From Escherichia phage vB_EcoM-pEB20, in the sequence record OP114733: a stretch of 64,000 bases of DNA. The stretch is one strand, 5' to 3'. The translations under genes were made by a program, and so were the position numbers. This document shows positions 3,397-20,632 of this stretch, piece by piece. A model generated the notes under the pieces. The model saw nothing but the letters and a program-made list of their open reading frames with translations. It did not search any database and was not told the origin of the DNA. Numbering within the stretch: position 1 is the first letter of the stretch; every line of letters starts with the position of its first letter.

Positions 3397-3912
3397 ATGA
3401 ATATTTGTTTAGGCAGTACAATTCCTAAGGGTTACGTAATTGATGTCACCACTTCGGAAAATGATGGTGACAACTATAAAACTAAAACGTTGTTTGGTGT
3501 AGAAGAGCATGAGCTCCAACAGTTTAAATATCTCTTGAAGAAATTTAAGAGTCGTCATTCTAGCACTAAAGCTGAACATTACTGTGGTAATACACCATTC
3601 AGTGATTGCTCGCTTTTAATCTATGAATACTTGGTTGAAGGACTGTTCTCAGACCAGCTTTATCCAGAATTCATTAAAAAGGTCTTTGATATTGAAGTCG
3701 ACCTCGGTAATAAATCTGAAGAAGATGAATCACGTGTATTTGACCTGTTCCGTGAGAATGGATATTTGGTATCAGAAGGTCTCATTGATATTCTCGGCCA
3801 TGCTTCTGAATATTATGATTATGATTTCTTGCGTGTAGTTGAATGTGTTGAATTTGCTTATATTGAAGAAGAAATCGTTTTGCCGACTGTTAAAATGATT
3901 GATTTGCTTTAA
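3397..3912 (+). CDS. hypothetical acidic protein
   Basis: 171 aa ORF, no recognised motif. Confidence 0.55.
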   Translation: MNICLGSTIPKGYVIDVTTSENDGDNYKTKTLFGVEEHELQQFKYLLKKFKSRHSSTKAEHYCGNTPFSDCSLLIYEYLVEGLFSDQLYPEFIKKVFDIEVDLGNKSEEDESRVFDLFRENGYLVSEGLIDILGHASEYYDYDFLRVVECVEFAYIEEEIVLPTVKMIDLL

Positions 3913-3991
3913 GAATTATGTGTTATTATTAATTCATACCCTCTATTACCAAAGGTGCTCTAAAGTGCCTTTCATAATAGAAAGTTATTTA

Positions 3992-4065
3992 GGCCCTGTA
4001 GCTCAACGGTTAGCAGCAGTCCCCTCATAAGGGAAAGGTTACCAGTTCGAATCTGGTCTGGGTCA
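3992..4065 (+). tRNA. tRNA with CAU anticodon (Met or Ile2/lysidine type)
   Basis: Acceptor stem GGCCCTG/CTGGGTC, T-arm ACCAG-TTCGAAT-CTGGT, anticodon loop CTCATAA; no encoded CCA; D and anticodon stems each have one mismatch. Confidence 0.7.
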
Positions 4066-4071
4066 TATATT

Positions 4072-4148
<77 letters not shown>

Positions 4149-4166
4149 ACTTTAAGTGAGGAAAAT

Positions 4167-4511
4167 ATGAAAGGCAATATTTATCTGGTAGTTCATGATT
4201 TAACGTTTTATTTTAACGAACATGATACAGTTATTTCAGGCCGATTGATTAATTTGTTATACCAACACGCAGATTACATCTATGTTCAAAATGAATTCGG
4301 CCATTGGAAGTTCATTAAAAACCGTTCCAGGTTAACTAGTTTTGAATACTTTGACCGTAAAGACCTTTTAAACGAAATTCCATTGCAACATCGGTTCCAG
4401 AAACGCGAATCATTATATTATTGCCGTCATATACCAAACGCCGAATGTGTTAATGAAGCGATTAATCTATGGCGTCGGCGTCGAGAGCAAATTGATGATA
4501 TGCCAAAATAA
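4167..4511 (+). CDS. hypothetical protein
   Basis: 114 aa from ATG 4167 with GAGGA SD; track ORF start 4119 lies inside tRNA-Arg and is rejected. Confidence 0.55.
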   Translation: MKGNIYLVVHDLTFYFNEHDTVISGRLINLLYQHADYIYVQNEFGHWKFIKNRSRLTSFEYFDRKDLLNEIPLQHRFQKRESLYYCRHIPNAECVNEAINLWRRRREQIDDMPK

Positions 4512-4822
4512 GAAGCCGGGTCGCTACCGGCAAGTCGTCGGACTGATGTTCCCTGGGTAAGGACTAGCCTTAATAAATCTTTATGTTTTGTTAATGCTCC
4601 CTTACATCACAGCAGAAACGGCGCACAGAATTATCGATTCGAGGAAATATCTTTGCCGTAAGCCGAGTAGCGTTTTTGACGGAACGTTCGGATATGGTCG
4701 AGATATGGCCTTTTAAAAATATTAAGTAGCGTCAACTACTTAATAACCAGGTTCAAATCCCGGCGTTTCGTACAAACACTTGCCTTAGCAGGTGGAACCC
4801 CGACAAGGTTGCCGCAAGGCTT

Positions 4823-4853
4823 AGCCCCTTCCGAAAGGTTGGGGCTTTTTTTT
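4823..4853 (+). terminator. rho-independent terminator
   Basis: Hairpin AGCCCC..GGGGCT followed by T8 run. Confidence 0.7.
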
Positions 4854-4897
4854 GCATAATAATAAATAGATAAGTTAATTAACTTAGGAAAAGTAAC

Positions 4898-5362
4898 ATG
4901 AAATCATATGCAGAATTTTTGACTGAACAATCTAGTTCAGATGTAAAAGCCGCTGCGATTGCAGCAATTCAAGCAGGTAAATATTCTTACAAAGACGCCT
5001 CTGATGAAGAACGTTTCCGTTTTATTAGAGATTTTAAAGCCGAAGGTTTTACTAATGCTAATACTGTTAGCCGAGTTTTTAAAAGCCTAGCTGCGTCAGG
5101 TGAATTGTTCCAGAAAGCTACAGGTAAAGCACCTGCGCCAAAAACAGACCCTAAAGCAGCTCAAGAAAAAAATATCGCCAAAGGAATTATTTCTAAGTAT
5201 GAAGCAATTCTTAAAGAGCTTTTAGTAATCAAAACAGAAGGCCAGAAACTGGCACGAGCACATAGCTTCAAAGATAATCCTCACGCTCATAGCCTTGAGT
5301 ATGTTGAAGATATCCAAAAACTTATTAAAGACCGTATCTGGTCTGCTAAACAAATTAAATAA
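4898..5362 (+). CDS. internal-protein-like protein with CTS-like N-terminus
   Basis: 154 aa starting MKSYAEFLTEQ (CTS variant); Lys/Ala-rich. Confidence 0.6.
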   Translation: MKSYAEFLTEQSSSDVKAAAIAAIQAGKYSYKDASDEERFRFIRDFKAEGFTNANTVSRVFKSLAASGELFQKATGKAPAPKTDPKAAQEKNIAKGIISKYEAILKELLVIKTEGQKLARAHSFKDNPHAHSLEYVEDIQKLIKDRIWSAKQIK

Positions 5363-5368
5363 TAGAAT

Positions 5369-5396
5369 GCCCCTTCCTTATGGTTGGGGCCTTTTG
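5369..5396 (+). terminator. rho-independent terminator
   Basis: Hairpin GCCCC-ttccttatggtt-GGGGC then CTTTTGG; same hairpin recurs at 20605. Confidence 0.65.
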
Positions 5397-20598: not shown

Positions 20599-20604
20599 TT
20601 TACT

Positions 20605-20632
20605 AGCCCCTTCCTTATGGTTGGGGCTTTTT
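20605..20632 (+). terminator. rho-independent terminator
   Basis: AGCCCC-ttccttatggtt-GGGGCT + TTTTT; same hairpin as 5369. Confidence 0.7.

Follow-up and report, generated by a model that had tools for sequence, protein, structure and literature searches.

Layout of the locus and orthology with T4

The window (the whole stretch of DNA analysed, 64,000 nt) is T4-type phage DNA nearest the RB69 group (Mosigvirus); the top matches to positions 3900-4900 are RB69-like and ~96% identical. Two tRNAs, at 3992-4065 and 4072-4148, are the sole ARAGORN and Rfam calls, and the following features lie downstream of them.

4167-4511: ORF of 114 aa (345 nt) between tRNA-Arg and rnaD, present likewise in RB68, RB69 and PhAPEC2
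4508..4627, + strand: orthologue of T4 rnaD (species 2 RNA), ~120 nt, aligned to the T4 misc_RNA rnaD
4628..4633, + strand: AU-rich spacer GAAUUA, 6 nt, between rnaD and rnaC; probable RNase E-type site
4634..4772, + strand: orthologue of T4 rnaC (species 1 RNA), 139 nt, tRNA-like, aligned to the T4 misc_RNA rnaC
4777..4810, + strand: two small conserved trailer hairpins (4777-83/4788-94 and 4796-99/4807-10), predicted fold
4823..4853, + strand: intrinsic terminator, AGCCCC UUCC GAAA GGUU GGGGCU then U8, from sequence and fold

RNAs C and D have been known from the T4 tRNA gene cluster since the 1970s, and what is found here is a rediscovery of these known RNAs. An earlier note had recognised an unannotated structured RNA from the sequence alone and placed it after the tRNAs. 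It does lie downstream of them, with the ORF at 4167-4511 in between, and the stretch holds two RNAs and a trailer where the note had supposed one processed RNA. The note had also offered T4 RNA C and D as analogues, a proposal that is exceeded: judged by sequence, 4508-4627 and 4634-4772 are orthologues of T4 rnaD and rnaC, not mere analogues, with order, trailer and terminator the same.

Identity to T4 rnaC (species 1 or 'band C' RNA, NC_000866 70908-71046) is 97.1% over a full-length 139-nt alignment (135/139 nt). One of the four substitutions gives CCAGG where T4 has CCGGG, producing an A.C mismatch in the T stem, and another turns a T-loop G into A; both phages place rnaC after rnaD, let a common trailer and terminator follow, and share its predicted fold. 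For rnaD (T4 species 2 RNA, 71053-71171 in the T4 reference NC_000866) identity is 86.7% over the full length, 120 nt aligned, and the two copies share the P1 hairpin, the invariant CGUCG/CGGCG helix and the UCCCUG segment. They differ at the 3′ end, which reads ...CACCA in T4 and ...CACAGA, with no encoded CCA, in the window. T4 rnaD begins 1 nt past tRNA-Arg with no intervening ORF, whereas the 114-aa ORF intervenes here; because the orthology is clear, adjacency to tRNA-Arg is a trait of the T4 arrangement and not of the RNA. The ends of both RNAs were transferred from the T4 annotation.

The gene order tRNA-tRNA-(ORF)-rnaD-rnaC-trailer-terminator agrees with T4, RB68 and RB69. A blastn search of GenBank phages with 4480-4870 (391 nt) matched 801 records, among them RB68, whose matching region carries annotated rnaD and rnaC at the homologous place; rnaD matched 734 phage records. 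A covariance model of rnaC (R1) finds one copy in the window, at 4634-4772, with 180 bits.

The trailer and following stem (4773-4852, 80 nt) are 93.6% identical to T4 and at least 96% identical to most relatives (range 88.9-98.8%), and 4773-4856 folds with a z-score of -2.50 against dinucleotide shuffles (2/200 as good). The strong terminator that the earlier note had expected, AGCCCCTTCCGAAAGGTTGGGGC then T8, lies just past 4822, at 4823-4853, and PhAPEC2 carries an annotated terminator at the matching site. A simple terminator scan missed it because of its internal mismatches.

Rfam scans of the window and six related loci, at gathering and at permissive thresholds, returned true tRNAs and chance-level matches alone. 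Such a scan had been suggested in the earlier note, with an empty outcome to count against an RNA. That reading is too strict: Rfam finds nothing on rnaC or rnaD because it holds no family for either. Host mimicry was considered and rejected, blastn against 5,426 E. coli genomes being without match, and no T4 late promoter (TATAAATA) was found near the locus.

Structure of the two RNAs

Homologues of rnaC were collected from Tequatrovirus, Mosigvirus, Gaprivervirus, Kanagawavirus, Winklervirus, Tegunavirus, Karamvirus and Moonvirus, from viral contigs and from metagenomes, giving 28 distinct sequences in at least eight genera. Two alignments were used, one of 23 distinct sequences (A3) for RNAalifold and a second of 36 sequences made with R1. 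RNAalifold returned a four-way junction whose arms are, in order, an acceptor-like stem, a long arm, an A/U linker, a 10-bp hairpin, one nucleotide and a T arm.

4635..4641, + strand: acceptor-like stem, 7 bp, 5′ strand CGAUUCG, pairing with 4764-4770
4642..4711, + strand: long irregular arm, 70 nt, standing where a tRNA has its D arm
4642-44/4709-11, 4648-52/4701-05, 4655-60/4693-98, 4663-66/4688-91 and 4670-75/4682-87, + strand: helices of the long arm
4676..4681, + strand: UUGACG, the loop that caps the long arm; proposed to kiss 4730-4735
4720..4745, + strand: 10-bp hairpin, UAUUAAGUAG / CUACUUAAUA, its loop CGUCAA (4730-4735), standing where a tRNA has its anticodon arm
4747..4763, + strand: T arm, CCAGG / CCCGG, loop UUCAAAU, with an A.C mismatch at 4749/4761
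4764..4770, + strand: acceptor-like stem, 3′ strand CGUUUCG, then UA; no encoded CCA

The structure is paired in 95.8-95.9% of cells in the two alignments, and 18 pairs have compensatory changes. When the partners were slid by 1-3 columns as a control, pairing fell to only 36-44% of cells. Shuffles of A3 reached the observed covariation values in 0/500 cases on four of five measures and in 1/500 on further pair types; with the 36-sequence alignment, 0/500 reached any of the five. Folded alone, the rnaC sequence of the window gives the comparative structure, and 4634-4772 has a folding z-score of -3.57 against dinucleotide shuffles (0/200 as good).

Support is spread over the arms. The long arm is paired in at least 99.7% of cells, with compensatory changes at 6 pairs, and such changes occur at 8/10 pairs of the 10-bp hairpin. 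In the T arm, which runs directly into the 3′ strand of the acceptor-like stem, 2/5 pairs co-vary (G-C to U-A in 8 sequences and C-G to U-A in 2); the middle T-stem pair is mismatched in the window and in phage VR7, and Kanagawavirus and Winklervirus have departed from the T-loop consensus (UGCAUGC, UGCAUCC). At one pair of the acceptor-like stem A-U is replaced by G-C in 10/23 sequences. Two internal U.U mismatches occur in this stem in 26/28 distinct sequences (21/23 in A3), and in the lineage of Yersinia phage TG1 they become U-A and C-G. The RNA also holds an invariant CCGAGUAGCGUU...AACGUUCGGAU core.

The motifs listed in the earlier note are all present: the stem-loop GCCGG 4515-4519 / CCGGC 4527-4531, the palindrome GAACGTTC at 4682-4689, AAGTAG-CGTCAA-CTACTT at 4724-4741, and the T-arm-like GGTTCAAATCC at 4750-4760, which belongs to a real and co-varying tRNA-like 3′ module. 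Its acceptor pairing, CGGAACG 4680-4686 with CGTTTCG 4764-4770, can likewise be drawn on the sequence, and its 3′ strand pairs instead with CGATTCG 4635-4641. We rejected the CGGAACG pairing, which holds in the window, shows no compensatory change and breaks in 9/23 homologues; the break is at one position, where the helix with the 5′ end shows the A-U to G-C exchange instead. What makes the spurious pairing possible is the likeness of GCGUUU, the 5′ strand of the apical helix, to the acceptor 3′ strand. As far as we checked, the comparative fold of rnaC, with an acceptor stem formed from its own 5′ end, is new.

The two apical loops of rnaC are complementary, UUGACG being the exact reverse complement of CGUCAA, and all six pairs hold in 28/28 distinct sequences; this too is new as far as we checked. 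Perfect 6-nt complementarity of two given loops has a chance expectation of about 1 in 4,096. The TG1 lineage has altered both loops in concert (UUGAUG/CAUCAA); in phage BMB16 one loop A has become G, which leaves a G.U pair. Since the double change counts as a single evolutionary event, it lends suggestive and not strong support; on these sequence grounds a loop-loop (kissing) pairing is somewhat favoured. The contact could be made within one rnaC molecule or between molecules, the covariation being the same for either. With ~24 bp in the long arm and 10 bp in the short one, a reciprocal rnaC dimer would be geometrically easier.

The fold of rnaD comes from minimum-free-energy prediction and from comparison of its variants.

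4515..4531, + strand: hairpin P1, GCCGG / CCGGC, 7-nt loop GUCGCUA, minimum-free-energy fold
4536..4540, + strand: closing helix, 5′ strand CGUCG, predicted to pair with CGGCG 4619-4623 (minimum-free-energy fold)
4550..4555, + strand: UCCCUG segment, bulging from the long stem and left unpaired by the minimum-free-energy fold
4557..4605, + strand: apical hairpin P3, base GUAAG 4557-4561 / CUUAC 4601-4605
4619..4623, + strand: closing helix, 3′ strand CGGCG

The P1 stem is retained with other sequences, as ACCGG/CCGGU, GUCGG/CCGAU and, in other genera, a 7-bp AUCAGAA/UUCUGAU. The 5-bp base of P3 has eleven variants, seven of them fully paired, including CUGUG/CACAG, CUAUG/CAUAG, AUAAG/CUUAU and GUACG/CGUGC, and the P3 interior is swapped wholesale from lineage to lineage. 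The long stem is closed by invariant segments, AAGUCGUCGG...ACGGCG. Both strands of CGUCG/CGGCG are invariant in 29/29 homologues, hence show no covariation, and their pairing is a prediction; the UCCCUG segment is invariant in the rnaD alignment (A4, columns 46-50). The folding z-score of 4508-4627 is -2.14 against dinucleotide shuffles (7/200 as good).

Two assignments of rnaD were tried and rejected. As a second tRNA-like RNA it fails at the 3′ end, where the ...CACCA of T4 gives way to CACAGA in the window and to CCGAAA and UUGAAA in other phages. As a hammerhead (CUGAUG ... GAAAC) it has U, not A, after CUGAUG, against the CUGANGA core, and Rfam at E up to 10 places no hammerhead family on the stretch.

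Resemblance to tRNA and distribution among phages

In its modelled fold rnaC is a tRNA-shaped RNA with the cloverleaf topology of tRNA. R1 aligns a genuine tRNA-Gln to it arm for arm with E = 2.7e-6: acceptor with acceptor, D arm with long arm, anticodon arm with 10-bp hairpin, and T arm with T arm. An acceptor stem and T stem with a UUCRANY-type T loop are both found, 4635-41/4764-70 being joined to 4747-51/4759-63, and both co-vary. With tRNA (RF00005) rnaC has in common a 7-bp acceptor-type stem joined to a 5-bp T stem, a 7-nt UUCRAAU loop, the four-way junction, the location in a tRNA cluster and the A/U spacers. It differs in its length of 139 nt, in a 6-nt loop on a 10-bp stem that replaces the anticodon loop, in a 70-nt arm in place of the D arm, and in not encoding CCA. 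Having neither an encoded CCA nor an anticodon loop, it is therefore not a decoding tRNA.

Neither ARAGORN nor Rfam makes a tRNA call on the stretch, and there is no tRNA match in 4300-5000 at E up to 10. ARAGORN does call part of the homologue in phage id4496 a 95-nt 'tRNA-Met', a false call that uses the equivalent of the alternative acceptor pairing (4680-86/4764-70) together with a non-pairing anticodon stem. No tmRNA was found by ARAGORN or Rfam, and the stretch has no tag reading frame. The suggestion of a degenerate tRNA in the earlier note thus holds for the shape and the probable ancestry, and not for the rest: tRNA models miss rnaC, and its non-tRNA-like parts are the most conserved.

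An acceptor/T-arm module on an unrelated body is also found in the tRNA-like domain of tmRNA, in YrlA (RF02553) and in viral 3′ tRNA-like structures, RNAs that mature via tRNA-processing enzymes. YrlA differs from rnaC in that its tRNA-like part is internal and its RNA ends form a separate Ro-binding stem, and neither YrlA nor any other Rfam family matches rnaC or rnaD. GOLLD and ROOL, in which recent cryo-EM found loop-loop kissing contacts, are like rnaC and rnaD phage- or prophage-borne, tRNA-adjacent and highly structured. They are 4 to 6 times larger, lack a tRNA-like module and have no sequence or Rfam relationship to rnaC or rnaD, so that the likeness is of kind only.

Beyond the close relatives the two RNAs part company. 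In other genera rnaC is the sole part of the 391-nt query still found by blastn. It lies directly between tRNA genes, with spacers of tRNA type, in Kanagawavirus, Winklervirus, Tegunavirus and Karamvirus, and a 6-nt A/U spacer (AAUUAU, AACAAU, AAUAAA) stands 5′ of it whether the upstream neighbour is rnaD or a true tRNA. No rnaD was found beside rnaC in the five other genera examined. Dhakavirus has rnaD joined straight to the trailer, with rnaC precisely absent. In Karamvirus and Moonvirus tRNA-Asn is followed by an rnaD-like element, and rnaC stands at another place in that cluster; an rnaD-like element also follows tRNA-Asn in Jiaodavirus, in the short stretches examined, and a short one follows a tRNA in the Vequintavirinae phages W70 and A73. 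We conclude that rnaC and rnaD are independent modules, a modular distribution that is new as far as we checked.

A pattern scan of metagenomes for rnaC gave close relatives only. With a gapped rnaD pattern most matches in viral contigs were GC-rich chance matches, as the information content of the pattern predicts, and those of T4 type were kept.

Expression, function and alternative explanations

Our explanation is that the stretch very probably encodes the T4-type stable RNAs rnaD and rnaC, co-transcribed with the tRNAs and excised by host tRNA-maturation enzymes. Its observed part is the orthology, the synteny, the conserved, co-varying folds and the constant linkage to tRNA genes by A/U spacers of tRNA type. 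In T4 work of the 1970s and 1980s a dimer of rnaD and rnaC accumulated without RNase E, species 1 required RNase P, and RNase III was able to cut species 1 in vitro. Transcription of the T4 tRNA region gives one ~1.75-kb precursor that ends after species I RNA (PMC2330249). T4 RNAC has been seen by Northern blot as a discrete stable species of ~140 nt, and RNA-seq shows RNAC and RNAD accumulating late in infection (PMC9697503).

From the T4 literature and the anatomy of the locus, rnaD and rnaC would share a transcript with the two tRNAs and the ORF at 4167-4511, one that starts at a promoter 5′ of the tRNAs and stops at the terminator (4823-4853). Host tRNA-maturation enzymes would then excise both RNAs, with endonucleolytic cuts in the A/U-rich spacers. 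RNase P would cut at the base of the acceptor-like stem of rnaC, its handle being, as in tRNA, the acceptor stem stacked on the T arm, and the 3′ trailer would be trimmed away. Anatomically, the acceptor/T-arm helix and the A/U spacers are compatible with maturation by RNase P and RNase E from a polycistronic precursor.

As to what the RNAs do, deletions of the T4 tRNA region are viable in the genetics of the 1970s. A hint comes from a T4-like phage that was evolved on a semi-permissive host, every line of which acquired a single convergent SNP in rnaD (PMC12685909). Tentatively, rnaC may mimic tRNA and, while infection proceeds, tie up or divert some host or phage factor that binds tRNA; this guess rests on its shape and on the strong selection on its non-tRNA-like body. 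On this view rnaD would be a structured module apart, with a partner of its own. Still more speculative is a fuller picture in which rnaC might be a tRNA-derived scaffold, its two non-tRNA arms locked by the 6-bp kissing contact, that as a mimic engages a tRNA-binding host factor, with rnaD as a separate mobile module found in several Straboviridae genera and some Vequintavirinae. If this were true, candidate factors for rnaC would include enzymes that process or modify tRNA and defence nucleases that target it. The question of function is ~50 years old, and the covariation-backed fold of rnaC, with the fact that the two RNAs occur independently, supplies concrete mutants for it, with the 5′-end acceptor stem of rnaC and the complementary loops as targets.

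Recent papers call these molecules 'small regulatory RNAs' (PMC9697503, PMC12685909), and both do have invariant unpaired segments that might act in trans by base pairing with host or phage mRNAs, through UCCCUG in rnaD, whose C-rich sequence may be likened to anti-Shine-Dalgarno seed motifs, or through the A/U linker in rnaC. We hold such a regulatory role to be unlikely: the strongest complementarity we found is that of loop to loop inside rnaC, and a review of post-transcriptional control in T4 reports no trans-acting sRNA characterised in that phage (PMC3014915).

It is also improbable that the locus is the debris of a tRNA operon, its decaying pseudogenes processed only via the tRNA-like ends they retain and functionless otherwise. 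The cloverleaf-like topology and the place in a tRNA cluster would be expected of such relics, as would mismatches in the acceptor stem of rnaC and, in the window copy, in the T stem. The clean absence of rnaC from Dhakavirus fits too, as does the finding of no rnaD beside rnaC in five other genera examined, and reviews still give no function after 50 years (PMC3014915, PMC9697503). A functionless relic is made unlikely, however, by the parts that are most conserved, which are the non-tRNA-like ones, namely the invariant core of rnaC and its two complementary loops. Compensatory changes moreover maintain the helices across at least eight genera, and within the one locus identity to T4 is 97% for rnaC against 87% for the adjacent rnaD.

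The position of the stretch between an ORF and a terminator, with hairpins that could block 3′ exonucleases, would also suit a purely cis-acting 3′ untranslated or processing region for the tRNAs and the ORF at 4167-4511, with no stable RNA made. This we regard as very improbable. T4 has no ORF before rnaD, other genera place rnaC between tRNAs and far from any terminator, and the T4 RNAs accumulate as discrete stable species (Northern blot of RNAC, PMC9697503; T4 annotation). Stable RNAs excised from the tRNA transcript remain our explanation.

The earlier note saw no credible ORF in the stretch, and indeed no conserved ORF covers it. That a small protein is made from a 42-aa ORF at 4588-4716 or an antisense 34-aa ORF is scarcely credible, even with many GenBank records calling a 'hypothetical protein' here and with the 42-aa ORF, which lies across the rnaD/rnaC junction, matching phrog_24262 (E = 3.6e-33): the start is TTG or ATG without a Shine-Dalgarno sequence, the frames shift or break in close relatives (RB68, L016, L019, L026, L027 and the BMB16 type), the ORF runs across two RNAs that are excised separately, a tRNA stands upstream of rnaC in other genera, and coding leaves the compensatory pair changes unexplained. 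The simplest account of the PHROG family is that automatic gene calls on an RNA gene were clustered together.

Relatives in GenBank mostly leave the rnaD/rnaC locus blank or carry spurious ORFs there. The orthologies have value for annotation in RB69-type genomes, which are blank or have hypothetical proteins at this locus; the annotated relatives RB69 and PhAPEC2 have no RNA annotation there. At least one PHROG family (phrog_24262) and one ARAGORN 'tRNA-Met' appear to be artefacts of the rnaC and rnaD genes.

Apparently modular behaviour of rnaC and the distribution of rnaD-like elements

The two RNA genes of the operon, rnaD (the orthologue of T4 species 2 RNA, 4508-4627) and the tRNA-like rnaC (the orthologue of T4 species 1 RNA, 4634-4772), are compared here with the homologous loci fetched from other phages (L-numbers; their coordinates are locus-internal). 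In the Dhakavirus phages IME08, AnYang and IME540 (L030 597-800, L031, L032) rnaC is cleanly missing; the rnaD end (...GGCGCACCGAA) abuts the conserved trailer (CACTTGCC...), and the terminator follows. At this junction rnaC behaves as if it were a discrete module, inserted or deleted. In Kanagawavirus and Winklervirus (L005, L006) rnaC is present with a T loop of UGCAUGC or UGCAUCC, as against UUCGAAU (columns 127-133 of A3, the alignment of 23 distinct rnaC sequences). Because these loops diverge while the T stem is retained, rnaC may have no strict need for the canonical T-loop fold.

Elements of ~100 nt resembling rnaD lie downstream of a tRNA in rV5-like phages, Karamvirus, Jiaodavirus and Moonvirus. 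The short elements are:

L033 594-698, in Vequintavirinae phage W70, and also in A73
L034-L037
L008 103-207
L024 34-138
L025 49-153

A conserved apical loop, GAGUUCCCUCAACGAUAAC, is common to them and missing from T4-type rnaD.

The RNA genes have attracted other annotations. A 42-aa ORF at 4588-4716 (+) crosses the rnaD/rnaC junction and matches the protein family phrog_24262 (E = 3.6e-33), many GenBank records call a 'hypothetical protein' at this locus, and in Enterobacter phage id4496 both ARAGORN and the GenBank record place a 95-nt 'tRNA-Met' within rnaC (L008 1251-1345). All three calls are probable annotation artefacts of the rnaC and rnaD genes.

Upstream part of the operon

The following features precede rnaD in the window:

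3902-3929 (+), candidate middle promoter (consensus match only)
3992-4065 (+), 'tRNA-Met (CAU)'
4072-4148 (+), tRNA-Arg(UCU)
4167-4511 (+), 114-aa ORF, phrog_3355, homologue of RB69ORF150c

The sequence ATTTGCTTTA at 3902-3911 (+) fits the T4 MotA-box consensus, and TATTAT lies 12 nt downstream of it at 3924-3929 (+). Together the two have the appearance of a middle promoter serving the tRNA/rnaD/rnaC operon; a search for the late-promoter TATAAATA found none nearby. A middle promoter has been described for the T4 operon (PMC2330249).

The 'tRNA-Met (CAU)' is probably a lysidine-dependent tRNA-Ile, since it is identical at 72 of 74 positions to T4 tRNA-Ile, which ARAGORN likewise calls Met. 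The tRNA-Arg(UCU) has no sequence relationship to its T4 namesake. In T4 a gap of 1 nt separates tRNA-Arg from rnaD, whereas here the ORF intervenes, its stop codon overlapping the annotated rnaD 5′ end.

Terminators

The terminator scan also flagged a terminator-like site on the minus strand, 4531-4515 (-). This site is the reverse reading of P1, the 5′ hairpin of rnaD, and after it comes a T-rich run complementary to the AAUAAGAA leader. A genuine terminator here is unlikely, because every neighbouring gene is on the plus strand.

The operon terminator hairpin, GCCCCTTCC-GAAA-GGTTGGGGC, has further copies (85-90% identity) downstream of other window genes, at 5369-5395 (+) and 20604-20632 (+); judged by this recurrence, it is one terminator sequence family that the phage re-uses. 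Recurrence of the hairpin is seen in relatives too.
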